Virus record (IMG/VR): IMGVR_UViG_3300020060_000009 | DNA: 64,000 nucleotides | Source of the DNA: a virus | Taxonomy: Duplodnaviria > Heunggongvirae > Uroviricota > Caudoviricetes | Reading direction: 5' to 3' (one strand) | Part shown: positions 1,312 through 37,040 of the stretch, piece after piece | Position numbering within the stretch: the first letter of the stretch is position 1 | How the letters are laid out: every line of letters begins with the position of its first letter | The notes under the pieces: model-generated | Told to the model about the DNA's origin: nothing | Database searches by the model: none | The model's input: the letters and a program-made list of their open reading frames with translations, nothing else | Translations under genes and position numbers: made by a program

Positions 1312-2319
1312 TTATACCTGTTTTTTCTTCTTGTTGTCAAGTATTATATCTGTACGTTCGTTGGAGAATTTTAATCGCGCACAGACACCTATATTCACAT
1401 ACTTTGATATTTTAATACGTGAACTATCAGATTCATTAACGTGTGGTAGACCGTTCCAACTAAGTAGGTGTTTCCAAGCAAAGTCTGGATTACCATTCCT
1501 GCGATCACCCTCAAAGAGTAAAATATCTTTTAACGATGGGTATATTTTCAACACAGATTCTACCTCTGGTAAAATTCTTATAAGAACCCCCATCTTTTGG
1601 AGACTTGTCATGCCCTTTTCTACAGACTCTGATATAAGCAGCTTATCAAGTTCCTGTACCCAACGCTCAACAGATACATCGTAGATACGATCTGCGAGTT
1701 GCCTTGCCTTACCGATGAAATTGGGGTCAATTTCAAAATTATAACGAGCTGCAAAACGTGCCGCGCGAAGTATGCGAAGAGGGTCTTCTTGAATACGATC
1801 TTTAGGAAGCCCTACAGTTACAATTTGCTTGCTGTGGATATGAAGCTTGCCTCCGTATGGGTCATAGATAGTCCCATCTGGACGAAGTACCATCGCGTTC
1901 ATAGTGAAGTCACGACGAGCAAGGTCTTCGTCTAATGAAGCAACAAACTCTACTTCTGGCTTGCGAGACTTGCTTGTGTATACCTCAGAACGGAAAGTTG
2001 TTACTTCAACGTATTCGTAATCAGTGGCGACTACTTCACCAGTTTCATCTGATATGTTCACTGGGACCTTAAAACCAATAGTACCGAACTTCTTGCCAAT
2101 ACCATAAGACTTGCGCCCAGCCTTTTTAACGGCTGCTTCGATATCGTCTGGGAGCATAGGAGTAGTAAAGTCATAATCTTTTGGTTCATTACCCATAACA
2201 ATATCACGAACGGAACCACCAACAAGATAGACATCTTCTGTGCCAAGAATTTCAATTACTTGTTTTTGTATTGCTAATGCTTTTTCCATATTAATCTCTC
2301 TGTTCGCCTCTAAGGTCAC
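1312..2319 (-). CDS. cca: tRNA nucleotidyltransferase (CCA-adding enzyme, class II Pol-beta family)
   Basis: N-terminal motif GGSVRD...DYDF, which is the class II nucleotidyltransferase GGxVRD/DxD signature. RILRAARFAARY matches the head/neck region of CCA enzymes. Consistent with many phage tRNAs, some lacking an encoded CCA. Confidence 0.8.
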   Translation of the reverse strand: MTLEANREINMEKALAIQKQVIEILGTEDVYLVGGSVRDIVMGNEPKDYDFTTPMLPDDIEAAVKKAGRKSYGIGKKFGTIGFKVPVNISDETGEVVATDYEYVEVTTFRSEVYTSKSRKPEVEFVASLDEDLARRDFTMNAMVLRPDGTIYDPYGGKLHIHSKQIVTVGLPKDRIQEDPLRILRAARFAARYNFEIDPNFIGKARQLADRIYDVSVERWVQELDKLLISESVEKGMTSLQKMGVLIRILPEVESVLKIYPSLKDILLFEGDRRNGNPDFAWKHLLSWNGLPHVNESDSSRIKISKYVNIGVCARLKFSNERTDIILDNKKKKQV

Positions 2320-2626
2320 CTAATTTAATCTCTTCGCCTTTATACTCAAGATACACGGTAGTGACGTCAGAATAATAACCGTTTTGAACTGAACGCGCTT
2401 GACACCACTTAGGCATACCGTCTTTAGATGTTAGAGCAAAGCCATCTTCTTTGAGCGTTATTTTTTTAGCAAATTGCTTAGCTGTCATGTCTGGAAATTC
2501 TTGACCAACTTCAAATTGTTCAAAGTCTAGATAATTAGATGCGCAACAGTCTTCATCACCAACACCTTTAACAACTAAGCCATTATCAAACTCTAATAAA
2601 TCTTCTTCTGATTTTAATAATTTCAT
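2291..2626 (-). CDS. hypothetical protein
   Basis: 111-aa ORF in the operon. Confidence 0.4.
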   Translation of the reverse strand: MKLLKSEEDLLEFDNGLVVKGVGDEDCCASNYLDFEQFEVGQEFPDMTAKQFAKKITLKEDGFALTSKDGMPKWCQARSVQNGYYSDVTTVYLEYKGEEIKLGDLRGEQRD

Positions 2627-3312
2627 TTTCCCATCCTTATGCTATACAGCAATTCATCAATCTTTTTCCAATTAGGCTCGTCCGGAAGGATTGATTTAAT
2701 ATCTTCCATCTTTCTATCTTCAATAATGAAGGCGTCAACAACCGTTTCTGGTGTCTGTTCTCCCATCTTGAATAACCATTCTCGCTGCTCAGGAGTCACT
2801 CTAACGGTTAATTCGCCTGTTTCGAGAAGCTGTCTACATTGTAGCAGTAAACGGAAGCAATGTCTAGTGTGTTTTGCAAAACGGTTTTTAAGAGCACTAT
2901 CGTACCCCTCTTTACCCTCTTCCTGCCTCCTACTCAAGTCCATAGCTTGACCAAGAGCATAACCTCGATATGCGTTCGTGACTGCCGGAGTTGATAGAAA
3001 GATTTTGCGGTTATCTACTAACAATTTGCCAATAGGATTAAGCACAGTATAACTTTCAAGCCACAATAGTTCAGACACAGTTGGATTACCCCCACCAGCG
3101 AGCTTCATAAATTTACCAACTTCGTGATAAACTTCGTCTGGATTAGTGTTCTGTATGGTAGTTTTTTGTGGATTAAAATTGATACCTAGAACCGTGCTAG
3201 TAGGTAGTAAATATATACCTTTAACATCGGTATCACTAGACTCAGTTGCAAGCCCGTATGCTCTTGAGCCTACGACTCCCTCAAGTATAATTCGGTTTGG
3301 CTTTTTGTTCAT
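2623..3312 (-). CDS. predicted nucleotidyltransferase (GSxAYG...DxD minimal NTase fold)
   Basis: N-terminus VVGSRAYGLATESSDTDVKGIY resembles the Nuc-transf_2-type motif hGS.ayG..t..SD.D. Lies next to the CCA enzyme. Confidence 0.5.
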   Translation of the reverse strand: MNKKPNRIILEGVVGSRAYGLATESSDTDVKGIYLLPTSTVLGINFNPQKTTIQNTNPDEVYHEVGKFMKLAGGGNPTVSELLWLESYTVLNPIGKLLVDNRKIFLSTPAVTNAYRGYALGQAMDLSRRQEEGKEGYDSALKNRFAKHTRHCFRLLLQCRQLLETGELTVRVTPEQREWLFKMGEQTPETVVDAFIIEDRKMEDIKSILPDEPNWKKIDELLYSIRMGK

Positions 3313-3901
3313 TTTCTAACCTTTTGTTTTCCCAGCGTTTTTTCGCTGCATCAGACATTCTCTTTTTCCATTCGTCTGACATCGTACGCCCTTTTAGCGC
3401 TTTACTCAACGATGCGCTTCTTTTTTTGTTGTAGTCTTCTTCTCTATATTTGGCTTTCATTTTTTCAGAAAAGTTCTCTTGCCAAACTGGGTCTTGCCAT
3501 CTTCGTTTTAGGGCAAGTGATATATTAGCTCTATGTTCATCTGATATTTTTCTGCCCGTTAGTGTTTTACTGATCTGCGATTTTTGGTTTTCAGTTCGAA
3601 ACCCATTTCTTCCACCAAGAGTACCGTTATAGCCGTCTGGATGTATACTATTATGCGCCACAATCTCAGATATTTCAAGAGCATTTAATTCATTTACGAG
3701 ACTTTCACTGTCTTCGGCTTCGACTATATGCAAAACTACATGTTCAAAGTTTTTCCAACCATATTTTTTTATTGCCGAGCCGAATATAGTCGCAGGAGCA
3801 TATCCGTGACCAGAATCCCAACGCCTCTTTAATGTCCCTAACGTCTGCCCTATGTACGATTTACCCGAAGGTGATGTGTGTTTATAAATATAACCAATCA
3901 T
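3281..3901 (-). CDS. GIY-YIG homing endonuclease with NUMOD3 repeats
   Basis: N-terminus IGYIYKHTSPSGKSYIGQT (GIY...YIG) and a conserved Arg/Glu/Asn region. Repeated ISDEHRANIS / MSDEWKKRMS segments are NUMOD3-like DNA-binding repeats. Confidence 0.75.
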   Translation of the reverse strand: MIGYIYKHTSPSGKSYIGQTLGTLKRRWDSGHGYAPATIFGSAIKKYGWKNFEHVVLHIVEAEDSESLVNELNALEISEIVAHNSIHPDGYNGTLGGRNGFRTENQKSQISKTLTGRKISDEHRANISLALKRRWQDPVWQENFSEKMKAKYREEDYNKKRSASLSKALKGRTMSDEWKKRMSDAAKKRWENKRLENEQKAKPNYT

Positions 3902-5820: not shown

Positions 5821-6119
5821 CCTGCAACAAGTTCTTCAGCTCGATCACGACCATCGTAACGATTATCATAAGTCTTTTTAGCCAATGCTTTTAATTCTTC
5901 AAGATCAAGAATCCAACCATCATAATCACCGTCCCAACAAGAACAACCATTAGAATCAATCCAAGTATACTCACCATCTCTTACAAATAGTGAGGATGTC
6001 TCTTCTTCATAGTCTTCACTTGTATCATGAGAAACTAAAAGTTGTCCAAACTTCTCAGCCATCTCTTCTTCTCGACTCATTTTAGAGTCCCAATTGTGTC
6101 TATATGTTACTGGTTTCAT
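5799..6119 (-). CDS. hypothetical protein
   Basis: 106-aa acidic ORF. Confidence 0.45.
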   Translation of the reverse strand: MKPVTYRHNWDSKMSREEEMAEKFGQLLVSHDTSEDYEEETSSLFVRDGEYTWIDSNGCSCWDGDYDGWILDLEELKALAKKTYDNRYDGRDRAEELVAGWVLENL

Positions 6120-6331
6120 ATATTATTCTTAAACCCTCTGACGCCCAATTGATCTTTTGGGACAATCACGTCTTCGTATACTTTAACTATTTTTAACCAA
6201 GCATCTTCATTTTTAAGCTTGACTTGATTACCCTGCTTTATCAAGTCATCCTGTTCAACCCAAGTTGTCATCTGGCGACCAGTAGTAATAGACTCTAGGT
6301 CAATCTGGACCATTAAAGGAGAACTACTCAT
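6116..6331 (-). CDS. hypothetical protein
   Basis: 71-aa ORF, translationally coupled. Confidence 0.4.
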   Translation of the reverse strand: MSSSPLMVQIDLESITTGRQMTTWVEQDDLIKQGNQVKLKNEDAWLKIVKVYEDVIVPKDQLGVRGFKNNI

Positions 6332-6738
6332 TAGTTTTGATTACCTTGTTCTCTACTGGCGCGAGTCACCCACTGAATAACTTCAATAGTTTTAGGTTCT
6401 ACTTCAAGAATTGGACCATCCCATTCGCTAGAGTCCCAGCTATCGTAAAGACCAGTCTTTAAGAAGTAACGCATGTCGCTTCCCCAACCAACAGTCATAA
6501 CACAACGCATGTTGTGGTCGCCACCCTCTTCACCGTCGAAGAACTCTTTACATTTTAGTGTTACTTCTTGGTCATTCCCTATCTTTTTAAAAGTAATAGG
6601 AAATGTTCCTTCTCGCCAAAATTCAAACTCGTCTGTAAAAGGAAGCTTAATAGGGAGATCAGGAAACATTTTTTCAATCAAAATAGCTTCGTTAATAGCT
6701 GCCTGTAGTTGATCGACTGTAAATGTTGTCTTACTCAT
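6331..6738 (-). CDS. hypothetical protein
   Basis: 135-aa ORF. Confidence 0.45.
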   Translation of the reverse strand: MSKTTFTVDQLQAAINEAILIEKMFPDLPIKLPFTDEFEFWREGTFPITFKKIGNDQEVTLKCKEFFDGEEGGDHNMRCVMTVGWGSDMRYFLKTGLYDSWDSSEWDGPILEVEPKTIEVIQWVTRASREQGNQN

Positions 6739-6837
6739 TACTTTCCCCTTTTGCTAATTTAGCCTTTTTACAATCTCCACGCTTATGAACAATTCCGCAG
6801 TAAACGTGCCTATATTTACGATTTACATTACTAGCCA

Positions 6838-7161
6838 TTAGATTCTCTCATATTCTGTGCGTTGCACTTTTGCTGCCTTCACCTCATATAGTTCTCCATC
6901 AAGTTCTCCACCATCGTAAGAAGCGTACCAACCTTCCTTGCGAAAGAATTGATCGCCGACCTTAAACACTACCCAAAACTCGTCACCAGAACCTTCACCA
7001 CCGTACTCATCAACAAACTTTAAAGTTCCAAAACCTGTAACTTCTATATCTTCTTGTTCGCCTTTTAGATCGTAGTAAACACCACCACCATAAGTTGATT
7101 CATAACCAGCTTCTTCAAATTCACTTATTTTCTCTTCTACTTCTTTTGCTGTAAAACTCAT
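6838..7161 (-). CDS. hypothetical protein
   Basis: 107-aa acidic ORF. Confidence 0.45.
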   Translation of the reverse strand: MSFTAKEVEEKISEFEEAGYESTYGGGVYYDLKGEQEDIEVTGFGTLKFVDEYGGEGSGDEFWVVFKVGDQFFRKEGWYASYDGGELDGELYEVKAAKVQRTEYERI

Positions 7162-7170
7162 ATATACCCT

Positions 7171-7938
7171 TTATAATTTTATTAGTTTATTACTATTATC
7201 TTTATGAACTTGTACATAATTAACATCCGGCGACCATAGCGCTGCGAGATTCTCGACAATAAATAATGCGAACCAACCTCTAGTAAGCGATGTAACTGTT
7301 CTGCGGAGTGCCCATGCGTAAGCTCTACGAGGGCTATAGGTATAGTTGGACGGAATTACCAAACGCTCCAAAGCTGTAGCATATACCTCTTCTCTTACAC
7401 ATTTAAGCTTATCCTCAAATGGCATAGCCTCCCATTTTGATTTATCTACTTTTACTTCTTCGTCATCTGCTAATATTCTTTCGTAAAGTGGAGTGTCATA
7501 GTAAGCAACAGAAGCATGGATAGAATCGTGAACATAAATTCTGACAACCTTATCATTAAAGAACTCACCTGCCATCTGATTAAGATTAGCTTTTTTATTA
7601 CCGTGAATTTCTAGCCATATCTTATAAAGCACTTTATAAAGAGGCCCTATAAGCTTTGCGCCATTCTCTTGCATTAACATAATATCTCTGGCGTGTTTTT
7701 CCCATGTGCCGTTGCGCAAATCCCAAAATATATGAGACACCTTAATGGAATAAAGTTCATCTAAACTAGCAGTTCTATCAACATCACTAAAATATTCCTT
7801 TAATGACTCGTGACTAAAAGGGTCATTACCACCCTTTTTAGGTTTCATGACTTCATCAGTGAAATAATCAACGTCCTGCGGAGTGCGACCAATATCAATA
7901 TGCTGTACTAGAGCAGTTGAGCCCACCAAGATTTTCAC
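7171..7938 (-). CDS. hypothetical protein (255 aa)
   Basis: ORF with a possible DVDYF Asp pair, but no secure family assignment. Confidence 0.45.
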   Translation of the reverse strand: MKILVGSTALVQHIDIGRTPQDVDYFTDEVMKPKKGGNDPFSHESLKEYFSDVDRTASLDELYSIKVSHIFWDLRNGTWEKHARDIMLMQENGAKLIGPLYKVLYKIWLEIHGNKKANLNQMAGEFFNDKVVRIYVHDSIHASVAYYDTPLYERILADDEEVKVDKSKWEAMPFEDKLKCVREEVYATALERLVIPSNYTYSPRRAYAWALRRTVTSLTRGWFALFIVENLAALWSPDVNYVQVHKDNSNKLIKL

Positions 7939-8483
7939 GAAACAAAGTCTCTGTATCCACGCATTAACAATCTCTTTAAGAAATTAGGGCGCTTAGTCTT
8001 GGGGACAGGTGTTACTTGGCTCTTAACTAACCCAACTGTATACTCGATTCTTTTAAGAGTCTGTAGCTCTTGAGAATCTGGCTTATAAGGTGAAACAGTG
8101 TTACAGTCATCGTAATCATCGTTGTCTTCATAGCCAAATAAGTTAAACGGAGCAAATATCTCTCGTTTCTGCTCGTCACTTGCATCAAACGGGACAACCG
8201 CCAATGCTGTAATAGAATAAGCGCTAATCTCATTTACACCCTCGTCAATGTAATATTGTGAATAAATACGAGCACTTTTTAAATATTCATGTAAGTTTCT
8301 GATTTGTTCAGAGTTTTCTGCTTCCAGAACTACCACAGTTCTCCTGTAGTTGTCCGCAAATTGATTACTACCAGCAACACCTTGCAACATCATAGCTGCA
8401 TGAACAGCTTGAGCTGCTGCTTTACCCGCACTCATATTAAGTTCTTTGTTCAGTACAACGTATAGTATTGGATTTTCTCTCAT
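7935..8483 (-). CDS. pth2: peptidyl-tRNA hydrolase, PTH2 family
   Basis: ILYVVLNKELNMSAGKAAAQAVHAAM aligns to the PTH2 signature ([25 protein letters not shown] in human PTRH2). The following beta-strand region is also conserved. Carries a C-terminal ~60-aa acidic extension. Confidence 0.75.
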   Translation of the reverse strand: MRENPILYVVLNKELNMSAGKAAAQAVHAAMMLQGVAGSNQFADNYRRTVVVLEAENSEQIRNLHEYLKSARIYSQYYIDEGVNEISAYSITALAVVPFDASDEQKREIFAPFNLFGYEDNDDYDDCNTVSPYKPDSQELQTLKRIEYTVGLVKSQVTPVPKTKRPNFLKRLLMRGYRDFVS

Positions 8484-8537
8484 ACTACTATTGTACGAGC
8501 TTGTGGTTAAAAAAGCAATACCTTTTTTAGATTTTCG

Positions 8538-9335
8538 TTAAACTAATCCCCATCGTGCAAGCTGTTCAAAACCTCCGAGGTGTTCTATATATTGTCTAGC
8601 AATCCCCACTATTTCCGAGTATTCCTTGCCATCAATCTTCTCGTCACCAATTGCACAATGAAGTTCAACAACTTCACCTGTCTCTTGCGCTTTAAGATGT
8701 GCATAAATATTCACAGCTACATCCGCTTTAGATAAGTCTTTACCGTGTAGACCACCACCCGTAACAGCTTCACCCATATCAGAGCCTAGTTTGCGATTTG
8801 TAGCACCAGTGTCGGCATCTAGCCCACCTGTCCAATAACCGAGTGGGTTAATGACAAGATCATGCTTATACAGCTTAGACAAAAATTCGTTTAAAACAAA
8901 TGTAGAAGCATAAGACTGACAAACGATTAACCTATTGCCAGCTAAAATATACTTACCATCTGTTGGGAAATTATCGTAGATTGTTTTAGCAATATCAGAT
9001 AAATCAGAAATATCTTTTTTAATAGGGACACCCTTAAAGATACCATTATCTCCAGCACGAGTTTCATCCTCTTGGTTCTTAGCTAACTCTACATCTTGAG
9101 GAACCTCAATATATTCAACTGTCAGATTACCAGCAATACGATTAACTATATCTTTGACAATCCAAGTGTCAATATTCACCGATGTCTCGCCAATGATATA
9201 CACCTTACCATGTCCAATGAGAACCTCGAATGCGCATCTTGGTTCATCCTCTATCTCATAAGCATAATCAACTAATGCGCCAGCAATACGATCTGCAACT
9301 TTATCTGGGTGTGATGGGTTTACTTTTTCTATCAT
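8538..9335 (-). CDS. metK: compact S-adenosylmethionine synthetase (MetK/MAT-like, ~266 aa)
   Basis: PSHPDKVADRIAGALVD matches the MetK N-terminal SEGHPDKxxDQISDAxLD motif. RAGDNGIFKG matches GAGDQGLMFG. TGGGLHGKDLSKADVAVNIYAH matches [23 protein letters not shown]. About 100 aa shorter than bacterial MetK. Start taken at the internal Met preceded by an AGGA ribosome-binding site. Confidence 0.7.
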   Translation of the reverse strand: MIEKVNPSHPDKVADRIAGALVDYAYEIEDEPRCAFEVLIGHGKVYIIGETSVNIDTWIVKDIVNRIAGNLTVEYIEVPQDVELAKNQEDETRAGDNGIFKGVPIKKDISDLSDIAKTIYDNFPTDGKYILAGNRLIVCQSYASTFVLNEFLSKLYKHDLVINPLGYWTGGLDADTGATNRKLGSDMGEAVTGGGLHGKDLSKADVAVNIYAHLKAQETGEVVELHCAIGDEKIDGKEYSEIVGIARQYIEHLGGFEQLARWGLV

Positions 9336-9345
9336 ATATTCCTCT

Positions 9346-10248
9346 CTAAAAACTATAATTAGGGTCGCCAAGTTGTGCAACATTTATTCCGTATACATCA
9401 CGAAGCATATTCGCTACTGCTACACGGTCATCGAACCATAAGAGGACATTGTATTTGCCAACAATATATTTCTCTATCATATCTGCTTTGACTAATGTGT
9501 CCTTAACTTGGTTGCCACGTTCATCTACATGTTCACTTCCACGCATATAGAGTTCATCGTATTCAATATCATTCTTCTCTAACCAAGCTTCTGTCTCTGG
9601 GCGACATACTTCATCACGGCCACTAAATATGAATAACTTTGCATGATTGATTAAAGTAACACCATCTAACATATGTGCGACACCTAAGTTGATATCATCG
9701 TTGCCAACTTTGTGCCACTCATAAGGAGAACGGTCTTTTGGGCCTAGCGTAAGAGTGCCGTCTAAGTCTGACACTACTACAAAAGGCAGTTCTGGGTCAT
9801 ATTTCAAGAAGGTGGGTAGCTTTTTAACAAAGCTATGGAACATCCCACGAATTACCTGTTCTCCTACCGAGTTATCTCTTGCTTTGTCACGTTCAATTAG
9901 TTCAGCGAGCGGGACATCGAGGAAATCCTTCTGCTCAACAGTAGCGCTAAATTCTCGCGCGATTGCGGAGAGTCCAGTGACATGTTTTGGATTGAGATTT
10001 GTATCGGAGCTAACAACATTTTTTCCTTGTGAAAGGGATTGACGAATGAGCCTATTTCTTTCTTTGAGAACAATCGACTCATCTCCTCTTTTGTGATTAT
10101 ATATCCCGTCTCGAAACAGACGTCCATCTCTTCTGATGTCATCTTTTTCAACACGAACCCACCCTTTTTCAACGAGTTCTTTGGCATAAGTGGTCTTTCC
10201 GCTTGCGGGCAACCCGCGCAGAATAAGAACTTTTAGTTTTTTTGTCAT
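9346..10248 (-). CDS. pnk: polynucleotide 5'-kinase/3'-phosphatase (T4 Pnk-like)
   Basis: N-terminal P-loop GLPASGKTT (kinase domain). C-terminal HAD motif VVVSDLDGTL (DxDGT) typical of the T4 Pnkp phosphatase domain. Confidence 0.8.
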   Translation of the reverse strand: MTKKLKVLILRGLPASGKTTYAKELVEKGWVRVEKDDIRRDGRLFRDGIYNHKRGDESIVLKERNRLIRQSLSQGKNVVSSDTNLNPKHVTGLSAIAREFSATVEQKDFLDVPLAELIERDKARDNSVGEQVIRGMFHSFVKKLPTFLKYDPELPFVVVSDLDGTLTLGPKDRSPYEWHKVGNDDINLGVAHMLDGVTLINHAKLFIFSGRDEVCRPETEAWLEKNDIEYDELYMRGSEHVDERGNQVKDTLVKADMIEKYIVGKYNVLLWFDDRVAVANMLRDVYGINVAQLGDPNYSF

Positions 10249-10254
10249 TTTTGT

Positions 10255-11538
10255 TTATACTTTTCCTTCTTCTTCCATGTCTAGAGTTCCCTCTGCCATG
10301 TTTTGGTTATCGTAACCCACGAAGGTAGCGCTCTTAGCTTTAAGAGTAAAGGGAGCAATTCCTTCTGCGCGGATTACCACGCCCTCATCACAAGGGCTAT
10401 CTTTATCTAGTGGGACAGCTCCTGGGAAGCCATCTTCTTTGTAACGGTGCATTTCTTCATGTCCAGCAAAGTCAATCCAGTCTTCTGGTTTAAACTCTTT
10501 GTACTTACCGCGCCATAGTAGTGGGACTACTTTCAGTTCACGGTCACGACAGAACTCTGCGATCTGGTCATAAGTCAGGTCGGCAACAACACCCTCTGGG
10601 TTAATCATTCCTACACGGTAAACGTATAAGTCTGCAACTCCCTGTGGAATCTGGTATGTGTACTTGCTCTGTAGTGGAGCACCCTCTGCTGTCCAGCCAA
10701 TAAGCTCACCATAGACCAAGTAGCCCTGTGGAATTTTGCCCATAAGCTTCTCACCTTCTGTGGACCAGATATCTGTGTCATAGAAGTGAACGTGGCTTGG
10801 ATTATTCTTGTCCTTAATAACACGGCGTGAACCGTAAACGTAGTCATACTCTTTTTCTTGGACAACTGCACCAATCTTCTTGGCAACTTTGTCCTTCCAT
10901 GTCATCTTGCGCTGCACGATAGTATTTGCAATACGAATAGATGTTCCGTGTAGTTTCTGTGTAACAGTAACATCTGCATTTTCAGGAATAACATGTGAGT
11001 TTTTGAAGTAGTTATCTGTGTCATAATGCTGTGGCAAGAACTTCTCATCAACACGGCTAAAGATTTTCTTGTTCTTCTCTAGTATTGTTTGTGCGCGAGT
11101 TGCCTTACGAATAAACTTCTTACAAATTTCATGGTCGCCAATGCGGTCAAACGTATCACCCTCAACGAATAATGAAGTATCTAACTTCTTAATGTAAGAG
11201 AGCGCACTTAGCTTGACCACAAGGGCATCCGAGCGATGACCACGCAGTTTAAGAGAGCGGATGTGTCGGTTATCTTCAAGATATCCAGACTCAGCCTGAT
11301 TCTCGTTCTTATCGTTGTGACGGTATAAGTTATTCTTGTAAGCAAATTCCTCTGAAAGCTGCGTACCTGCGGTAAATACCAATGCGAGGTCTCCGTAGTC
11401 AGAGGTCTTTGCTACAAGTGCTTGGCTTCCCAAAACTTGAAGTCCTACAAGGTTGTCTAAACCTTCTAGAGCCACAGGCTTTGGCAAGCGCACTATCACA
11501 CCTGCGTAGTCACTGTTTTCTGGTTCTAATAGTTTCAT
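10255..11538 (-). CDS. rnl: RNA ligase (Rnl2-like nucleotidyltransferase)
   Basis: Motif I QKLHGTSIR matches the KxHGxN covalent nucleotidyltransferase motif of T4 Rnl2-type ligases. Adjacent to pnk, the classic tRNA-repair pair. Confidence 0.65.
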   Translation of the reverse strand: MKLLEPENSDYAGVIVRLPKPVALEGLDNLVGLQVLGSQALVAKTSDYGDLALVFTAGTQLSEEFAYKNNLYRHNDKNENQAESGYLEDNRHIRSLKLRGHRSDALVVKLSALSYIKKLDTSLFVEGDTFDRIGDHEICKKFIRKATRAQTILEKNKKIFSRVDEKFLPQHYDTDNYFKNSHVIPENADVTVTQKLHGTSIRIANTIVQRKMTWKDKVAKKIGAVVQEKEYDYVYGSRRVIKDKNNPSHVHFYDTDIWSTEGEKLMGKIPQGYLVYGELIGWTAEGAPLQSKYTYQIPQGVADLYVYRVGMINPEGVVADLTYDQIAEFCRDRELKVVPLLWRGKYKEFKPEDWIDFAGHEEMHRYKEDGFPGAVPLDKDSPCDEGVVIRAEGIAPFTLKAKSATFVGYDNQNMAEGTLDMEEEGKV

Positions 11539-11603
11539 TTTGTTTTTCTCTCTTTGTTTCTGTTACTATTTTACGACACTAAAATAAAAAAAGCAATAGC
11601 ATT

Positions 11604-12383
11604 TTATAAACCAGCATGCCAAACATTACTACGGCCTAAGGGAGTTAAGTTAATCACCATAGAATCATTAGTAGCTTCAACCCATAATGTTTTGCCGTTC
11701 TTCTCTGTTAGATGAGTGACAGGTACGAACCAATCTATATAATTTTTCCAACCTAATTGCCTAAATTCTATTGCCATATTTACATCAGGACCGAGTCCAT
11801 TGCTTGAACCAAATTTGTGCATCTTATATAAATCAGCTCTGATTAAAGCACAATACAATCCACAGGCATCCACCTCTTCTACCTCGGTTGTCCCTACTTT
11901 GTTTTTCATAGATGTTATCTTTCGAGGATTATCTATATTATCAACTTTCCATGCGCCAACATATGGTGTTCCCCACCGTCCTAGTTCAACACCAGTAACA
12001 ACACCAACTGCTGGATAATTTTGGACATCGTTAACAAGCCAAGATAAAGCATTTTCAGGTAAAATTCCATCATCTTCAATTGAGAATATCCACTCAATAT
12101 CTTCTCCAATCAAACTTTTAATCTGATTATGAATTGAGCTAATTCTAGCCCTGCGTTGTGGGATTGTAACGGCTGAATCACCCCAGTTATTTGACCTAAC
12201 GCATAGTACGTCATTTAGGGGCAATGACGCAAGTTTATTATGAACTTTGATATATAAGTCATTCGAGCCGTCAACGACCACTAGAAGCGCTGTACGCTCC
12301 TCGTATGACTGGTTTAATAGTGATTCAAGTACAAGATCAAGGTAGGTCAGGCGACTTACTGGCAGTATTGTTAATATTTTCAT
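11604..12383 (-). CDS. family 2 glycosyltransferase
   Basis: VVVDGSND and a DxD-like EDDG. Overall GT-A fold pattern. Confidence 0.6.
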   Translation of the reverse strand: MKILTILPVSRLTYLDLVLESLLNQSYEERTALLVVVDGSNDLYIKVHNKLASLPLNDVLCVRSNNWGDSAVTIPQRRARISSIHNQIKSLIGEDIEWIFSIEDDGILPENALSWLVNDVQNYPAVGVVTGVELGRWGTPYVGAWKVDNIDNPRKITSMKNKVGTTEVEEVDACGLYCALIRADLYKMHKFGSSNGLGPDVNMAIEFRQLGWKNYIDWFVPVTHLTEKNGKTLWVEATNDSMVINLTPLGRSNVWHAGL

Positions 12384-12567
12384 TTTGTATTTTTAGTATT
12401 TCATTGTATTGTTTTAATATATCTTTTGATTCACGAACAGCTTTATCCCATTCACGATTTGGTGATTTGGCGCTAATAGCCTTGATATAAAGAGGCTCTG
12501 ACAAAACAGCGCGTAATAGCACAGCTAGTTTCGCATCAATTATTTCTAATCTCTCTTCTACTGTCAT
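12337..12567 (-). CDS. hypothetical small protein
   Basis: 76-aa ORF overlapping the neighbouring gene ends. Confidence 0.3.
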   Translation of the reverse strand: MTVEERLEIIDAKLAVLLRAVLSEPLYIKAISAKSPNREWDKAVRESKDILKQYNEILKIQNENINNTASKSPDLP

Positions 12568-13265
12568 TTTGTTTTAATTTTCTTAAATTTTTTGCCATTA
12601 ACTATCTCGAGCATTGTGTGGTCACCATAAGGCGTTCCATCCGCATAGGTAGAGAATGTATCAATACACCAAATATCCTTTGCAACTTCCCAACAAGTTT
12701 CACTAGGAGTATGACCAAACACCTGGGGAATTTGCGCATAACTTCCCCAACTTGGACGAACCCATAGAGGAGAATGATCTTGCCATAGATCATCCATCTC
12801 GTTAGTACCATTCCAGCCGTGTGCTATACCAGCATGTGAAAAAGTTACACCATCCTCTTCTAGAGTAATAGGTAGGCCAAGTAACCAGTCTTTTAGGTAT
12901 TTATACGCTGGCGCATTGATAGAAAGTTGTGTTACGGCGTTATAACCACTTTGTAGACTTGGAGTTTTGTTGACGTATATAAAATCATGGTTACCAAGAA
13001 CAAGCTTTACTTTGTCTTCGTTAGCTTGTTGCAACATAAAAAGTCTATGCCATGTATCAATGGATTCAAGACCGTCTTTACCAAAGTCGTCAGCATAATC
13101 TCCAACAAAAATAACACGATCATACTTAGGAAGCAGTTTTTCAACTCTATCTATTACAAATTGTTTCGTATGCACATCACCGACTGCTAATATTTTCATC
13201 TTGTTCCTTAATAAGTTTTTGTTCTTGATATTCGTTATATCTTCTTGCACCCTCTTCTGCATCAC
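12564..13265 (-). CDS. calcineurin-like metallophosphoesterase
   Basis: Motifs GDVH, GDYADD and GNHD in order, the classic Ser/Thr phosphatase / phosphoesterase signature. Confidence 0.75.
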   Translation of the reverse strand: MMQKRVQEDITNIKNKNLLRNKMKILAVGDVHTKQFVIDRVEKLLPKYDRVIFVGDYADDFGKDGLESIDTWHRLFMLQQANEDKVKLVLGNHDFIYVNKTPSLQSGYNAVTQLSINAPAYKYLKDWLLGLPITLEEDGVTFSHAGIAHGWNGTNEMDDLWQDHSPLWVRPSWGSYAQIPQVFGHTPSETCWEVAKDIWCIDTFSTYADGTPYGDHTMLEIVNGKKFKKIKTK

Positions 13266-13419
13266 CCTTGATTTTTTCTCTAGACTCGATTATTAAATCA
13301 ATAATCTTATTATTTTCGTCAACAGAAACTTGAGCTATTTCGTTACGTTGAAACAGAGAACGACTTTCCCCATCTACCATGTAAAAAGCATCTGTAGTCA
13401 TGTAACTACGCAAGGTCAT
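13177..13419 (-). CDS. hypothetical small protein
   Basis: 80-aa ORF. Confidence 0.3.
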   Translation of the reverse strand: MTLRSYMTTDAFYMVDGESRSLFQRNEIAQVSVDENNKIIDLIIESREKIKGDAEEGARRYNEYQEQKLIKEQDENISSR

Positions 13420-14440
13420 TGATCAGTTTCTCCCATTTTCCCTCAAGCTCATAATTAGAGAACTCTTCGTACCCTATATTATATGCTATCTTCTTCTCTG
13501 CTTGCAAGTCCTTTTTTGCTAAAAAGTCTAATCTCTGCCCTAAAGTAGCGTGGTTAACAGTGTAAAGATCAATTAAAGTTCTCGTCATAAACTTACCTGT
13601 TTCCGTAGCGGGGGTTAACCAATGTTGAGGTAATATTTTATCATTGGGCGAAATATCGGTCATAAGAACGGGCATTCCGGCACAGAGCGCTTCTGTCATT
13701 GGCAAACATTGTCCACCGTATCGTCTAGGAAGAATCATGGCATCAAAATCACGATACAATTCCACTTCATTTTCTGGACTTGATGTGTCAATTGTAATTC
13801 TTGGATCGTTATAAGTATTTACAACACCACCAACTTGTGTCTTAATTACTAATTCAAAGTCTTCACCACTATAGCGCATAGCTCTAATGAGGTCTTCTGT
13901 CCCATTACGATCATTTACTGCTTGTCTCCCCATGATATGCAAGAAGCGTTTTCTGCCCGTGCGTTTTAGGTTATGTTCTCTGACTTCTTTAAAGTCATCA
14001 ACAAACACAGGCGTGGGGAGATATTCGACACTGCCCCATAATGAACGTGCATCTGCTAAATGCCATCTACTAGGAGAAATAAGTTTATCGGGTAAAGTTA
14101 GTTCAGGTTGACGAAGATAATCAGCGAACTCCCAGTTGTATTGGTTGATTGTTTTGACTCCCATATGCTTTGCAAGGTCTACAAATCTAGTATTGTAAAA
14201 AATCTCACAAGTGATAACAATATCTATACCGCGAAGCCACTCTATAACCTGCTGGTTAGTCGGGAATCCGTTTATCTCCGTGACACTATATGTAGCATAG
14301 GTATCTGGATATTGTTTATTGCCGTTAAAAAATGAGCTGTTAATAAGCATAATCTCGTCTGGGCGAATCATCCGTGCTAAGTTGCGAGTCTGATTGCCCA
14401 AGCCAGTTCTATCACTTCGTGCTATTAGTCCAATTCTCAT
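13406..14440 (-). CDS. putative glycosyltransferase (GT-B like)
   Basis: 344 aa with a Rossmann-like N-terminus and an E-x7-E-like C-terminal region. Weak assignment; sits in a glycosylation cluster. Confidence 0.45.
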   Translation of the reverse strand: MRIGLIARSDRTGLGNQTRNLARMIRPDEIMLINSSFFNGNKQYPDTYATYSVTEINGFPTNQQVIEWLRGIDIVITCEIFYNTRFVDLAKHMGVKTINQYNWEFADYLRQPELTLPDKLISPSRWHLADARSLWGSVEYLPTPVFVDDFKEVREHNLKRTGRKRFLHIMGRQAVNDRNGTEDLIRAMRYSGEDFELVIKTQVGGVVNTYNDPRITIDTSSPENEVELYRDFDAMILPRRYGGQCLPMTEALCAGMPVLMTDISPNDKILPQHWLTPATETGKFMTRTLIDLYTVNHATLGQRLDFLAKKDLQAEKKIAYNIGYEEFSNYELEGKWEKLINDLA

Positions 14441-14646
14441 CTTATGCGCTCCACTTTAGATATATCTACAAATATATGCAGTTTCATCCAACAATCAAGT
14501 CTACTCGGAGGTTTAACCCTTGTAGGATTTGCAATTGGCATAAACCCAGGTATCTCAACAATTTTTCTTTTGCCACAACCAATGCAAACCACAATGCGTT
14601 CAACTCGATTAACGTTTTGTTTTCTCACTTGATATTTAGCTCTCAT
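14437..14646 (-). CDS. small Cys-containing protein
   Basis: 69-aa ORF with CIGCGKRK. Confidence 0.3.
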   Translation of the reverse strand: MRAKYQVRKQNVNRVERIVVCIGCGKRKIVEIPGFMPIANPTRVKPPSRLDCWMKLHIFVDISKVERIR

Positions 14647-15203
14647 TTTGTCGCCTCAAATACGAGGCTCTCTTTTGGCCGTGTATCATATTCACTACTT
14701 TCCAGTTGTACTACTTTCCGGAACCCCGCTTCTTCCAATACTTTCGCCATTCTTGCTGGTGTATATAGAGAATCCCTTGTGCTGTAGCCAGAGATAGCGA
14801 AACAAAGCTTATCGTCAATAGAACCCTCATCAATCGGTATGTCTTCACTTCGCCCCTCCTCATAAGATTTAAATACTTTTAGCAAATCCATATCAATCAC
14901 AACCAGCTTTGCTCCTGGCTTTAATGTTCTGTGGATGTTAATTAGCGCTTTATGCACAAGATAGTCGTTCATTGTACATAGCACATGGTTAATAACACCG
15001 CCGTCGAAACGCTCGATGTATTTATCTTCTGGTGTTTGTGTCATGTCCCAGTAATGGAAACTATCATTGCCAATGCTGCCATTGACAAAGATAGAATCAA
15101 AGTTATACCACTTCTCTTCCTCAGTACTTTCTTTTAAATCTGGTCCAGAACCGTAGTTAGCAAATTTAAACGGAAACATTTTTGCCCCACATGTTTGTAG
15201 CAA
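14643..15203 (-). CDS. class I SAM-dependent methyltransferase (putative)
   Basis: Rossmann-like core HVLCTMNDYLVHKALINIHRTLKPGAKLVV resembles the Methyltransf_11 C-terminal motifs. Confidence 0.45.
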   Translation of the reverse strand: MLQTCGAKMFPFKFANYGSGPDLKESTEEEKWYNFDSIFVNGSIGNDSFHYWDMTQTPEDKYIERFDGGVINHVLCTMNDYLVHKALINIHRTLKPGAKLVVIDMDLLKVFKSYEEGRSEDIPIDEGSIDDKLCFAISGYSTRDSLYTPARMAKVLEEAGFRKVVQLESSEYDTRPKESLVFEATK

Positions 15204-15648
15204 TCAGTTGTGCTCTTTTTTCATTTGCTATCTTTATAGCATGTTTTTTGTTTTTAGCCAAAACATCTATCCCCATAACCCATTCACCATTGTGCAATTT
15301 ATCTTCGTCTTTACCATGTGACCATCTTTCTCCGGTGTGGAAATGAGGGTATTCATGCTTAATAAAATTTGGTGTATCTAAATCCCATGAATATCTATCG
15401 CTACCGTGTTCATACACATCAAAGTCAGCAGGGTTTTGAGGCAATTCGCCGTTTTCAAACATATTAACATAAAAAATCTTATAACCATTTTGAATATAAC
15501 TTGGTGCTTCTGGATTAAGCGGATATTCTTCTACTCTTCTCTCGTAGAAAGCACCAGCAAAAAGTTCCGCCTTTTTTTCATCAGTAAATACACCAACTAT
15601 ATGATAGTCAGAGTAATCACCTTCCGTCACTACATAAGCATTATTCAT
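15166..15648 (-). CDS. hypothetical protein
   Basis: 160-aa ORF. Confidence 0.4.
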   Translation of the reverse strand: MNNAYVVTEGDYSDYHIVGVFTDEKKAELFAGAFYERRVEEYPLNPEAPSYIQNGYKIFYVNMFENGELPQNPADFDVYEHGSDRYSWDLDTPNFIKHEYPHFHTGERWSHGKDEDKLHNGEWVMGIDVLAKNKKHAIKIANEKRAQLIATNMWGKNVSV

Positions 15649-16286
15649 ATTTTATAAAACCTTTCCGGTACATACATTAAATATGGGTCTAAAATACCTG
15701 TCCCTATTTGTGAGCTGTAACACATAAGCGCTCTTATCTTATCTGCCATACGAGATTTCTCTTGAATTGTACGGGCTGGCTTGTATGCAATACCTAATTC
15801 TTTTAACCTAGTTGGAACAAGCTCTGGTTCTGTGACACGAATTGGCAAGTCCTCCCATAGCATGACTGGCAAGTCGGTCTCTAAGCTAAGAACTGCGTCG
15901 CTTACCCTTAAATGGTCTGGGTGCCCTAACCCAAGTGGGGCATAAATTCCTTCATATTCTCCACCATCTACAATTCTTTGCAGCACTTCTGCTATCTCTG
16001 ATTGTGTCACATCTTCGCCGTATTGTCCATCAGGAAAATCTAGGTCTACATTTGTCGCGCTTAATAAGGCAGTGGCAGCATCATTCTCTCGGCGACGTTC
16101 TGAAACTGCATCTTGGGCATTTTTGAACCCGCACTTTAAATCGTAAGGGGTTACTACAGTCTCCGAAGCATCTGGATATCCACCGAAAACGGTAACAACA
16201 GTAGTATCAGGGCGTTCTGCCATGAATTGACCAGCGCTAAGGATAGCGTCATCGAAGTGGGGGCTAATTATGAGTAACTTATTCAC
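15645..16286 (-). CDS. PIG-L / LmbE family N-acetylglucosaminyl deacetylase
   Basis: ISPHFDDAILSAG near the N-terminus and GHPDH, the PIG-L zinc-binding motifs. Confidence 0.7.
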   Translation of the reverse strand: MNKLLIISPHFDDAILSAGQFMAERPDTTVVTVFGGYPDASETVVTPYDLKCGFKNAQDAVSERRRENDAATALLSATNVDLDFPDGQYGEDVTQSEIAEVLQRIVDGGEYEGIYAPLGLGHPDHLRVSDAVLSLETDLPVMLWEDLPIRVTEPELVPTRLKELGIAYKPARTIQEKSRMADKIRALMCYSSQIGTGILDPYLMYVPERFYKI

Positions 16287-16388
16287 TTTCTACCTCTGCC
16301 AAAACAAAATATGATGGCGTCTCTGTTTCGCCTAACGGGATTGGTGGTTTAATGATCTCCCATTTGCTTCCATCATCAGCTGTAATTA

Positions 16389-17939
16389 TCATATCTTTTC
16401 CATCCAGAATCTAATATTATGGTTTTCCAACTCCTCACTTTTTACACTAAACTTACATTTACTATAAAAACCAGTTGTCTTTCCGTAGTGCTTTGTCGGG
16501 TCAAAGAAGTCCATAGACTGAATATCAAACCCTCTTACATGTGTCGGGTCAATCCATAAGAACTCTGCTTTCCAGCCTGGAGTCTGTATATACAATATCC
16601 CACCTGGCTTCAAAATACGATGACATTCTTCCAGAAACTTAATAACGCCATGATCTTCGCCGATATAAGGAGGAAGATGCTCAATAACATCAACTGCTTT
16701 GATCTCGCTAGCAGAATTGTCTTCAAATGGATAAGGAAATTTCATCAAATTATGGACAACATCTATGTTCGGCAAGTCGATCATATCCACATTAATCCAA
16801 CCCGGAAATGCGTCTTCACCTGCCCCTAAGTTTATTCTTAAATCTGGCTTAATTTCTATTGCTGTTGAATCTTTATCAATTGGTTTAATAGGTGACAATG
16901 GTTTGCCTTTCATTTCTTGTGTTGCTGTTATTGTTGTCGCTTTGTCAGAAACCTCAAAAACGTCGCCTGTGTGGGACTTTGGATCACCAAACGCCCCTTC
17001 GTCGTCTAAAGTATCTAAGAGGGCTTGTAGGCGCTTAGAATACGTCTGAGAGGACTTTACGAACTCGTGTCCTGCCTTGCGAATTGCTTCACGCTCTTCA
17101 TCATGCTCTAAATAGTAATTTATCTTCTCATCAAGCTCTTCAAAATTTCCGTATTCATAAAAGACTGCATTTACATTTTCTTGAAAAAGATCAGCCACAC
17201 CTTCAATCCGAGGATATATAGTGAAAGCACCGCGACCAATACTTTCAAAGAGACGATCTGACGTATAGTTTTTGTGTTTGAATCCAATATTGACAGAGTC
17301 ACCAACAGCGATTTTAGAGTTTGCATAAAGTTGATTAAGCTCTGTACCCCTGACTGTTCGTTGTGGATGTCCAAACTTTTTATATCTTTCTCCATACTTA
17401 TCCTCCAAATGTTTTACTAACTCGTAACGATAAGCCCATTCTTTGTGGCCGTATTCTGCACCTCCACCAACAAAGATGACATCTCCGCTTAATGAAGCAT
17501 CATTGTTTGGAGGGAGCATGATACACTCTTGTTCAAACACGCCGGGAAGAAGCCAGTAATGATTAATTCCTTTACTGTCGAAGAAAGCTTGTGATTCAGG
17601 ATCGCCATCTGCACTAAATACATATTCAGTTCTCCAAAACGGATCGCTCTCAATACCAGATTGTCTAGAAAGGCCAACATAAAGATCAAGGTGATAAGAA
17701 GCTGTTGGAATACCTCGCTCCTTTAATATCGCAAGATCAGCAAGTGTTACCATTTTGCCCCAAGTACGTGTATATAGAAATAGATCGGTGTCCTCTGGCA
17801 CTCTTTGAAGCCAAGATGGGTCATGATGAGCAAGTTCTTGGATGCGAACAACTTCATGACCCATGCTCTCAAGGGTCTTAGCGATATGGTTTTCTGTAGT
17901 GAAGTCTACACTATAATTTCCAACGTATGTTATTTTCAT
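16389..17939 (-). CDS. bifunctional glycosyltransferase / SAM-dependent methyltransferase (predicted)
   Basis: 516 aa. N-terminal 300 aa are GT-like. C-terminal VDVIEHLPP...ILKPGGILYIQTP is a Methyltransf_11/23 signature. Confidence 0.55.
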   Translation of the reverse strand: MKITYVGNYSVDFTTENHIAKTLESMGHEVVRIQELAHHDPSWLQRVPEDTDLFLYTRTWGKMVTLADLAILKERGIPTASYHLDLYVGLSRQSGIESDPFWRTEYVFSADGDPESQAFFDSKGINHYWLLPGVFEQECIMLPPNNDASLSGDVIFVGGGAEYGHKEWAYRYELVKHLEDKYGERYKKFGHPQRTVRGTELNQLYANSKIAVGDSVNIGFKHKNYTSDRLFESIGRGAFTIYPRIEGVADLFQENVNAVFYEYGNFEELDEKINYYLEHDEEREAIRKAGHEFVKSSQTYSKRLQALLDTLDDEGAFGDPKSHTGDVFEVSDKATTITATQEMKGKPLSPIKPIDKDSTAIEIKPDLRINLGAGEDAFPGWINVDMIDLPNIDVVHNLMKFPYPFEDNSASEIKAVDVIEHLPPYIGEDHGVIKFLEECHRILKPGGILYIQTPGWKAEFLWIDPTHVRGFDIQSMDFFDPTKHYGKTTGFYSKCKFSVKSEELENHNIRFWMEKI

Positions 17940-25072: not shown

Positions 25073-25654
25073 ATGGTTCCAACTCAAACTCCGTGGTATG
25101 CTACGAAGAAAGCTATTAATGGGTACATTATTGGCGGTGCTGTAATCGTAGGATTGCTAATCCTATTTACAATAATTGGTTCTTTGAACAACACATATGT
25201 TTCCAAAGACCAGAATGTACAAACTAGTGAGAGCAACATCAGCAAAGAAAGCCAGCGTCGTGTTGATTTATTCAACAACTTAGTAGATGCAGTGGAATCA
25301 GCGAAGACATTTGAGCAAAATACTCAAACAAGAATTGCTGAGGCTCGATCACAGGGTAATAAAGGGCAAGTTGATGAAGCAATGCTAACAATTAATGCAG
25401 TTGCTGAGGCTTACCCAGAGATCAAGAGTACTAAGTTGTATGAACAGACCATGATTGAATTTAGTATTACCGAGAATCGCCTAGCTTCATACCGAGAACA
25501 GTACAATAATGATGTTCGTGATTTTAATGGTTATGTTCAGGGATTCCCTCAGTCTATGTTCTTGCCTTTTGTTGGTAAAGACACAGCGCCTAAAAAATAT
25601 CTAGACTATAAGGTTAACGACGCAGAGGCTCGTGACCTTTTCAAAAAGGATTAA
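25073..25654 (+). CDS. lemA: LemA family membrane protein
   Basis: N-terminal TM helix plus the LemA pattern RRVDLFNNLVDAVESAK...AEAYPEIKST...YNNDVRDFNGYVQGFPQSMF. Strong AAGGAG ribosome-binding site. Confidence 0.7.
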   Translation: MVPTQTPWYATKKAINGYIIGGAVIVGLLILFTIIGSLNNTYVSKDQNVQTSESNISKESQRRVDLFNNLVDAVESAKTFEQNTQTRIAEARSQGNKGQVDEAMLTINAVAEAYPEIKSTKLYEQTMIEFSITENRLASYREQYNNDVRDFNGYVQGFPQSMFLPFVGKDTAPKKYLDYKVNDAEARDLFKKD

Positions 25655-25656
25655 TT

Positions 25657-26385: not shown

Positions 26386-26387
26386 TA

Positions 26388-36890: not shown

Positions 36891-37040
36891 ATGGGACAGG
36901 TTCTAATTATAGCCCTGTTGGTCGCAGTTATAGCTTTGGGAGGTCTCGCCATCTCCCAAAGCAAGACCATTGAAAAATACGAAAATGAGCTTATTAAAAA
37001 AGCCGGAAAGAACAAGAATGGGCCAAAGCAGTCAAAGTAA
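36891..37040 (+). CDS. small membrane protein (49 aa)
   Basis: MGQVLIIALLVAVIALGGLAIS...; overlaps the start region of the next gene. Confidence 0.3.
   Translation: MGQVLIIALLVAVIALGGLAISQSKTIEKYENELIKKAGKNKNGPKQSK

Follow-up and report, generated by a model that had tools for sequence, protein, structure and literature searches.

The minus-strand gene at 8538..9335 of the window, by which we mean the whole stretch of 64,000 nucleotides of phage DNA that was analysed, encodes a genuine but divergent homologue of MetK (methionine adenosyltransferase, MAT), and the protein is another member of a known and very abundant family. Of interest are the small size of the protein and, as the one unusual trait in this phage, a neighbourhood of RNA-repair and sugar-modification genes in place of a DNA methylase; current views of the family stand. 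From the homology, the AF2 fold, the conserved residues and the gene neighbourhoods we infer a catalytically competent mini S-adenosylmethionine (SAM) synthetase feeding phage methyltransferases, here likely the methyltransferase domains of a glycosyltransferase (GT) cluster, a reading that we hold with slightly more belief than doubt.

Gene call and start site

The gene, its ribosomal binding site and the gene directly upstream are as follows:

8538..9335, minus strand: compact MetK / methionine adenosyltransferase homologue, 265 aa (ORF, Pfam, PHROG, hhalign, AF2, Foldseek)
9341..9346, minus strand: Shine-Dalgarno sequence GAGAGG, 5 nt upstream of ATG 9335 (read from the sequence)
9346..10248, minus strand: polynucleotide kinase-phosphatase, PNKP (Pfam AAA_33 4.2e-27 and HAD_PNKP 1.1e-16), directly upstream of metK

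An ATG at 9335 and a minus-strand stop ending at 8538 give the 265-aa product, and the same product was called independently on a Logan contig from run SRR7015887. The N-terminus MIEKVNP/MxEKVNP is common to all aligned homologues, so that the start at ATG 9335 chosen by the first-pass annotation agrees with the Shine-Dalgarno sequence, the independent gene call and the N-termini of the homologues. The first ATG, at 9383, would give a 281-aa reading, which we discard: it has no ribosomal binding site, runs 38 nt into PNKP, and begins with 16 extra residues that are unconserved and missing from every homologue. The GAGAGG sequence of metK overlaps the TAG stop (9346-9348) of the PNKP gene, indicating that the two genes are co-transcribed and possibly translationally coupled.

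Homology to SAM synthetases

The Pfam domain S-AdoMet_synt_N is matched with an E value of 6.7e-11 (43 bits against a gathering score of 33.1), the MetK C-domain falls below threshold (12.9 bits against 25), and no match to the central (M) MetK domain was reported in the 265-aa protein. The NCBIfam metK equivalog TIGR01034 gives 51.2 bits against a cutoff of 309.4. Since these curated thresholds are missed, the phage MetK is placed in a divergent subfamily and is not an equivalog by curated criteria. The protein matches PHROG 1569, labelled 'unknown function', at 1.4e-63 over residues 1-264. A single-sequence search of the PDB matched only MetK/MAT chains, with E values down to 2.6e-11, and a family profile matched MAT chains of the PDB at 1.2e-18. 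In hhalign, residues 2-265 align to residues 8-346 of E. coli MetK (probability 98.4%, E 7e-15, 263 columns; the 384-aa reference sequence is identical to PDB 7ll3_A), at an identity of about 20-30%. The Pfam N-domain, the PDB matches and hhalign thus agree on the compact MetK homologue first proposed, and the three hallmark motif regions reported with it are present, as HPDK at residues 9-12, RAGDNG at 93-98 and GGGLHGKDLSKAD at 193-205. The protein had been described as about 266 aa long and about 100 aa shorter than its bacterial counterparts; the compactness stands, with an actual length of 265 aa, 119 below E. coli MetK (384 aa), and this gap is far beyond chance.

Predicted fold and sites of residue loss

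The AF2 model of the phage MetK, whose final alignment included divergent representatives of 34-62% identity, has a pLDDT of 96.1 and a pTM of 0.93 and consists of three beta-alpha-beta-beta-alpha-beta units (H, helix; E, strand). The central domain comprises H10-28, E34-41, E44-51, H57-68 and E72-78, the N-domain E2-5, H107-122, E127-132, E135-140, H145-155 and E159-162, and the C-domain E98-102, H204-219, E223-227, a short hairpin and H239-253. The best 50 listed Foldseek matches in the PDB are all MAT, the top one being the E. coli MetK-ATP structure 7loo_B (E 7.7e-19, query-normalised TM-score 0.79), and a Foldseek search of the BFVD viral structures gave nothing significant. A first AF2 model, from 39 close homologues (Neff 1.9), had a pLDDT of 69 and a pTM of 0.49 and was replaced; its structure matches were all MetK, with poor superposition (TMq 0.28).

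According to the model all three MetK domains are kept and no domain is deleted, and the 'domain deletion' of the first-pass annotation is therefore withdrawn. In a motif-anchored comparison with E. coli MetK the 119 missing residues are scattered over about ten places, in loops, hairpins and the C-terminus:

N-terminus: 6 residues
Loop after helix 2 (E. coli 56 to 99): 13 residues
Around the gating loop: about 4 residues
Before the D163/K165 strand (E. coli 119 to 164): 15 residues
Tip of the 166-189 beta-hairpin: 11 residues
Before FINP: 14 residues
Active-site loops: about 4 residues
C-domain: 10 residues
C-terminus: 42 terminal residues, with the conserved YGHFGR region among them

The shortest MAT chain among the PDB matches has 377 residues.

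Active-site residues

The eight substrate-binding motifs from Komoto 2004, quoted in Kieft et al. (bioRxiv 10.1101/2021.01.05.425418), are all found in the phage MetK, as HPDK, fE, gEt, GDnG, DgK, nRKl, hGKD and KaDv. By hhalign and motif anchors the following positions correspond (E. coli in mature numbering):

Phage H9, D11, K12: E. coli H14, D16, K17
Phage E37: E. coli E42
Phage E50: E. coli E55
Phage Q80: E. coli Q98
Phage D96: E. coli D118
Phage D126, K128: E. coli D163, K165
Phage W168: E. coli F230
Phage D175: E. coli D238
Phage R181, K182: E. coli R244, K245
Phage K199, D200: E. coli K265, D266
Phage K203, D205: E. coli K269, D271

In a MAFFT alignment of 166 full-length members, 45 of them representing 50%-identity clusters, 155-164 sequences keep the residue at each checked position (at least 93%), and the exceptions are mostly N-terminal gaps. 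The position of E. coli F230 is an invariant Trp (W168) in the compact family. The assignment of D126 and K128 is based on motif and strand position, the hhalign alignment being ambiguous for this short segment; hhalign sets DGK against E. coli DDGK (176-178), which we gave up for D163-A-K165, because D126-G-K128 is invariant and, in the model, lies at the start of the hairpin's first strand, off the turn.

The equivalent E. coli residues serve in metal, triphosphate, methionine and adenine binding and in acid catalysis, roles that were reportedly established by Taylor and Markham and by Komoto et al. The active sites of MetK are built with residues of two subunits, and since both sets of residues are kept, the phage MetK should be at least a homodimer with a dimeric active site. 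Judged from these alignments, the conserved residues argue for an active enzyme and against a decoy. The first-pass annotation had raised a dominant-negative role, in which a catalytically dead protein would form mixed oligomers with the host MetK and lower SAM synthesis. The protein is indeed far shorter than the host MetK, active sites at a dimer interface make mixed dimers conceivable, and phage interference with MetK oligomers has a precedent in the T3 SAMase (PMC8406200). However, H9, D11, E37, E50, Q80, D96, D126, K128, D175, R181, K182, K199, K203 and D205, and with them the metal-, triphosphate-, methionine- and adenine-binding residues, are kept at 93% or more across the 166 members, and a decoy would need none of them. 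Loss of the catalytic Lys and Asp residues and the ATP-binding loop had been named as a sign of a decoy, and no such loss is found. As DNA methylases, which consume SAM, are the usual partners of the family, lowering SAM would be counterproductive, and we regard the decoy as highly improbable.

The compact family and its usual partner

At least 8000 clusters at 90% identity match the phage MetK in a word-indexed search, all significantly, and the best 120 of these are 258-282 aa long and 65-73% identical to it. Over the clusters the length is largely constant, at 262-268 aa, which speaks for selection. The phage protein has the traits of this clade, namely a length of about 260-270 aa, the N-terminus MxEKVNPSHPDK and the C-terminus GGFEKLAEWGL, and some of the clusters are named 'S-adenosylmethionine synthetase' by JGI or NCBI. 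Among 1.84 billion representatives at 50% identity, an exhaustive HMMER search gave 179 matches with an E value below 1e-30 and 627 with one below 1e-10. The carriers among GenBank phages are mostly Ca. Heliusvirales phages of gut Bacillota, Javan prophages of Streptococcus and a phage of Gardnerella. A count over one genome per species gave more than 511 loci; Clostridia and Bacilli account for most of these, and Bacteroidaceae, spirochaetes and others for a few. The family is thus found in prophages of more than 500 bacterial species.

The usual partner is a DNA methyltransferase, with an ORF of this kind no more than 400 nt from metK in 126 of 160 loci (75 of the 80 from IMG/VR, 51 of the 80 from genomes); these counts were made with six DNA methyltransferase seeds and phmmer and are lower bounds, as the seed set is small. 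In the annotated phages MetK follows a small terminase or HNH gene and precedes a DNA methylase (about 410 aa, ParB-like at its N-terminus), after which comes the large terminase. For the closest sequence relative, P0002 (71%), the genes that precede metK are two C5 methylases and one methylase of the N6/N4 type, and at one further locus of the family a Methyltransf_21 gene is found two positions upstream of metK.

The family has already been catalogued as the viral auxiliary gene metK; no enzymology of any compact phage SAM synthetase was found in the literature searched. Viral metK ranks among the most frequent auxiliary genes. Of the Ca. Heliusvirales genomes, 58.9% carry it (K00789), alongside dcm (PMC11283538), and it has been described as a widespread auxiliary gene under purifying selection, in clades apart from bacterial MetK (bioRxiv 10.1101/2021.01.05.425418). 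The earlier statement that phages usually destroy SAM is contradicted by its frequency in Ca. Heliusvirales, by the size of the compact family and by the survey of Kieft et al.

Gene neighbourhood in the window

From about 20.1 kb down to 0.2 kb every gene is on the minus strand. The order of transcription begins with a DNA polymerase exonuclease-like gene and continues with a glycosyltransferase-methyltransferase fusion, DUF7336, a PIG-L deacetylase, a small methyltransferase, GT1, a metallophosphoesterase, GT2, an RNA ligase, PNKP, MetK, PTH2 and DUF7275, followed by small unknown genes and a NUMOD3 endonuclease-like gene, RlaP and a CCA-adding enzyme. The annotated members of this block, apart from metK and PNKP, are:

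16389..17939, minus strand: glycosyltransferase with a C-terminal class I SAM-dependent methyltransferase (Glyco_trans_1_2 1.7e-24, Methyltransf_11 3.9e-05)
15645..16286, minus strand: PIG-L family de-N-acetylase (Pfam PIG-L 1.9e-10)
14643..15203, minus strand: small class I methyltransferase, 186 aa (weak Pfam matches to Methyltransf_23/11/31, 4.6e-4 to 5e-3)
13406-14440, minus strand: GT1 glycosyltransferase (Pfam)
12564-13265, minus strand: metallophosphoesterase (Pfam)
11604-12383, minus strand: GT2 glycosyltransferase (Pfam)
10255..11538, minus strand: RNA ligase (Pfam RNA_ligase 5.6e-13)
7935..8483, minus strand: peptidyl-tRNA hydrolase PTH2 (Pfam 1.6e-15), directly downstream of metK with a gap of 54 nt
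7171..7938, minus strand: DUF7275/DUF7277 protein (Pfam 1.7e-62; PHROG 6944, 'unknown function', 2.2e-100)
2623-3312, minus strand: RlaP nucleotidyltransferase (Pfam RlaP 1.3e-23)
1312-2319, minus strand: CCA-adding enzyme / poly(A) polymerase family (Pfam PolyA_pol 7.9e-28)

Two candidate SAM consumers are found in this block. The methyltransferase domain of the fusion spans approximately residues 395-516 and carries the motif INLGAGED, and the small methyltransferase, with a likely start at ATG 15179, carries the motif ANYGSGPD. The nearest methyltransferase gene is about 5.3 kb from metK, whose immediate neighbours are RNA-repair and translation genes; RlaP and the CCA-adding enzyme are further RNA-repair genes of the same block, and the RNA ligase shares 43-44% identity with proteins annotated as such in Xanthomonas phage XacN1 and in many mycobacteriophages. 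The phage has 26 tRNA genes. No minus-strand terminator-like site was seen between 18.6 kb and 7 kb, in a scan that performed at chance level; the promoter and terminator scans were both at chance level, and the limits of the operon are not defined by them.

No homologue of the six seed DNA methyltransferases was found in the 64-kb window, and no Pfam family of DNA methylases among the approximately 40 larger window proteins that were scanned. A regular expression for methyltransferase motifs I and IV missed even the Pfam-supported methyltransferase domains. The typical adjacent DNA methyltransferase, mostly fused to ParB-N and near the terminase, has no homologue in the window or in the flanks seen; this is a feature of the context, and the clade membership of the protein stands.

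Bacterial Pnkp-Hen1 systems 2'-O-methylate the repaired junction, which prevents a second cut, and by analogy SAM from the phage enzyme might be used for methylation in RNA repair. The position of metK between PNKP/RNA ligase and PTH2, the overlap of its ribosomal binding site with the PNKP stop and the same order in the related contig L005 (see below) would suit such a role, but Pfam and PHROGs gave no Hen1-like methyltransferase among the scanned neighbours and the only methyltransferase domains lie within the glycosyltransferase cluster, making this very doubtful. Less far-fetched, though still improbable and drawn wholly from the context, is a general insurance of the SAM pool, perhaps against depletion by a host response or by a competing element, or support of tRNA modification (at least 26 tRNAs), in either case with no dedicated phage client. 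It would be in keeping with a block of PNKP, RNA ligase, CCA-adding enzyme, RlaP, PTH2 and HAD_SAK_2 that sustains translation, with the 26 tRNA genes, and with the existence of warfare directed at SAM, such as the T3 SAM lyase (8bb1). No SAM-depleting defence was identified here, however, and the linkage of the family is to methyltransferases, away from RNA repair.

A related phage and the flanking DNA

The groundwater phage contig L005 is collinear with this phage over 14 genes, with protein identities of 41-91%. Its MetK orthologue is 70% identical, inside the range of its neighbours, PNKP is in the same position (83%), and the C-terminal half of the fusion (79%) and the small methyltransferase (46%) are present, so that both methyltransferase domains and MetK are kept; GT2, the metallophosphoesterase and GT1 are collinear as well. 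The best match of P0008 is the MetK of this phage, and the GC content of metK is 0.392 against a window mean of 0.399. Together with the collinearity of L005 this indicates that metK is a long-standing resident and no recent insertion. Megablast of window positions 6000-14000 against 50,697 phage records and tblastn of the major capsid protein gave no match, and the phage is therefore unplaced. The phage also encodes a CHAP+VanY endolysin, which hints at a Gram-positive host.

The flanking DNA (contig L091, about 10 kb past the left end of the window) contains a hypermodification module located 0.5-2.7 kb downstream of window position 598, just outside the window and about 10 kb downstream of metK:

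L091: ParB-like protein, 213 aa (PHROG 723 at 2.6e-7; LLDGHQR motif)
L091: Tet_JBP dioxygenase, 287 aa (Pfam 4.4e-18, above threshold; HxD present)
L091: TET-associated glycosyltransferase, TAGT (Pfam 5.3e-9, above threshold)

A protein with a HAD_SAK_2 RNA-repair domain is encoded further along the left flank, and a 3.5-kb contig beyond L091 was recovered by homology search. No DNA methylase Pfam family was reported in approximately 23 kb of flanks. The module matches the subclass of ParB-associated 5-methylpyrimidine dioxygenases, which according to a 2026 paper convert thymine to 5hmU and mostly occur without a C5 methyltransferase; glycosyltransferases and O-methyltransferases are among the genes co-occurring with them in the same paper. 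A SAM synthetase is unmentioned in the earlier work on phage TET pathways that was found, and no MetK in surveys of TET/glycosyltransferase systems or jumbo phages was found in the literature searched.

The client could instead be a phage DNA methyltransferase outside the regions read, or a host or orphan DNA methylase, the location among RNA-repair genes being accidental; metK would then have the same anti-restriction role as in most carriers of the family. The family overwhelmingly adjoins DNA methyltransferases, P0002 following three methylases, and some 20 kb or more of the 99-kb contig, and the sequence beyond the capsid side, lie outside the regions read. Against this, the window has no seed homologue, Pfam reported no DNA methylase family in the approximately 23 kb of flanks or among the approximately 40 window proteins scanned, and the MetK of L005 is in the same methylase-free block, and we therefore consider a client of this kind rather unlikely.

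Proposed role

In our preferred reading, that of an active enzyme supplying the methyltransferases of the glycosyltransferase cluster, the phage MetK would keep the three-domain fold and convert ATP and L-methionine to SAM, PPi and Pi. The gene should be expressed together with its neighbours from the long leftward transcription block, and would make more SAM available, during infection, to the SAM-dependent methyltransferases that the phage encodes. In most carrier phages the client would be the adjacent DNA methyltransferase, shielding phage DNA from restriction. This lineage has no DNA methyltransferase close to metK, and the likeliest clients are the two class I methyltransferase domains located 5-9 kb upstream on the same strand. 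A supply of SAM to the two methyltransferase domains of the glycosylation cluster had been suggested from the start, and fits the conserved gene order. These enzymes probably O-methylate the glycan built by the cluster, and the glycan might be attached to hypermodified phage DNA, because of the ParB-like/TET-JBP/TAGT module about 10 kb downstream of metK, or alternatively to virion proteins.

Tentatively, and with considerably more doubt than for the preferred reading as such, the mini-MetK may have moved from a partnership with DNA methylases to DNA hypermodification, and the outcome would be a methylated glycan, linked to DNA, for which the phage itself supplies the cofactor. The ParB-dependent TET/JBP-type dioxygenase would then make 5-hydroxymethyl-pyrimidine in the phage DNA, TAGT and GT1/GT2 would build the glycan, the PIG-L enzyme would de-acetylate it, and the two methyltransferase domains would O-methylate it with SAM from the phage enzyme.

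Comparison with known systems

E. coli MetK (384 aa; PDB 7ll3, 7loo) has the same fold, aligns end to end and has the same catalytic and substrate-binding residues, whereas the phage protein is 119 aa shorter, has Trp in place of F230 and scores far under the TIGR01034 cutoff. The MAT of Ureaplasma urealyticum (PDB 6rjs, 6rk5; 377-382 aa), the shortest solved MAT among the PDB matches, shows that some trimming is tolerated, yet it is about 115 aa longer than the phage MetK.

The 'MetK' of Streptococcus agalactiae prophage 12/111phiA has been described as a SAM synthetase 135 aa below E. coli MetK in length, with the catalytic region intact, and deletion of its gene changed aggregation and biofilm formation (PMC8223999). 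It is likewise compact and may belong to the same family; proteins of the Streptococcus Javan prophages, the group of 12/111phiA, are 58-60% identical to the phage MetK. The gene is carried by a temperate siphophage, beside an endonuclease and a restriction-modification or methylase module. The Heliusvirales NatCom phages have proteins 58-66% identical and of the same length, but their copies adjoin DNA methyltransferases near the terminase genes whereas metK is here in an RNA-repair/glycosylation block, and this phage is large and tRNA-rich with no DNA methylase in view, unlike the Heliusvirales loci. The SAM lyase of T3 is likewise a phage protein acting on the SAM pool of its host, in connection with the evasion of restriction and BREX, but with the opposite effect, as it destroys SAM and inhibits MetK; its fold is unrelated, with no sequence or structural similarity to the protein described here.

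Implications

If active, the 265-aa MAT would be about 30% smaller than every SAM synthetase among the matches that has been solved or characterised, and would represent the minimal catalytic core of a universal enzyme, of use in enzyme engineering and for SAM analogues. Should the hypermodification pathway also be true, these 265 aa would be the smallest functional MAT core. The abundance of the family in gut prophages would, given activity, mean that phages widely boost, rather than drain, the methyl-donor supply of their hosts. Because the context of metK in this phage is atypical, the finding suggests that SAM supply is a portable module, attached to whichever methylation chemistry a phage runs, and that here it may serve the methylation of glycans on hypermodified DNA.

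DNA hypermodification genes

Three consecutive genes lie 0.5–2.7 kb outside the left end of the window, on L091, the contig that extends about 10 kb past that end:
L091 10903–13130, on the strand that carries metK: ParB-like protein (213 aa), Tet_JBP dioxygenase (287 aa) and TET-associated glycosyltransferase (253 aa)

The dioxygenase has an HxD motif, and the trio forms a module for hypermodifying DNA that belongs to the ParB-associated 5mYOX type. No C5 methyltransferase was seen near the module, and its product is probably 5hmU. The module may act jointly with the glycosyltransferase, methyltransferase and deacetylase cluster located upstream of metK (11604–17939, minus strand).

Lineage, host and other genes

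Further genes are distributed over the window as follows:
25073–27197: LemA-family protein, then an ATP-grasp protein of the R2K clade
31543–32694: fusion of HIRAN and PD-(D/E)XK nuclease
36970–37830: SPFH/Band_7 protein
47628–49259: endolysin-like protein (543 aa) with CHAP and VanY domains
49570–50097: collagen-repeat protein, adjoining the tail genes
62710–63996: major capsid protein (Pfam Phage_capsid, 1.7e-6)

A tblastn search of 50,697 GenBank phage records with the major capsid protein gave no match, nor did megablast with the 8 kb around metK. The lineage of this phage is undescribed and seen in metagenomes only (SRR7015886/87/91 and ERZ27268014), and the domains of the endolysin-like protein hint at a Gram-positive host. 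Genes for Band_7 and PolyA_pol proteins are likewise carried by L009, the phage with the closest MetK relative. The tRNA genes, 26 in number, are found in three clusters between 27934 and 41007, all on the minus strand; the one at 39355–39429 has an abnormal anticodon call of two bases only ('tt', tRNA-???).

RNA repair and translation rescue

A single strand bears an unusually complete set of RNA-repair and translation-rescue genes, which continues further along into L091:
1312–11538: CCA-adding enzyme, RlaP nucleotidyltransferase, peptidyl-tRNA hydrolase (PTH2), polynucleotide kinase-phosphatase (PNKP) and RNA ligase
L091 19271–19870, RNA-repair strand: HAD_SAK_2 'Swiss Army Knife' domain protein

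An ORF with a NUMOD3 motif (homing-endonuclease-like) lies at 3281–3901, between RlaP and genes of no assigned function.

Two neighbouring small acidic proteins (6331–6738 and 6838–7161) are paralogous to each other, both match PHROG 18295 and PHROG 8206, whose function is unassigned, and the pair is kept in the related groundwater phage (contig L005). In that phage the RNA ligase gene is in two pieces (L005 5013–6854) corresponding to residues 1–255 and 253–427, with an identity of about 90%, and divided by approximately 550 bp containing an ORF of 170 aa; the interruption is probably an intron, an intein or a homing-endonuclease insertion. The RNA-repair and translation-rescue set suggests that the phage protects itself against tRNA or anticodon nucleases of the host.
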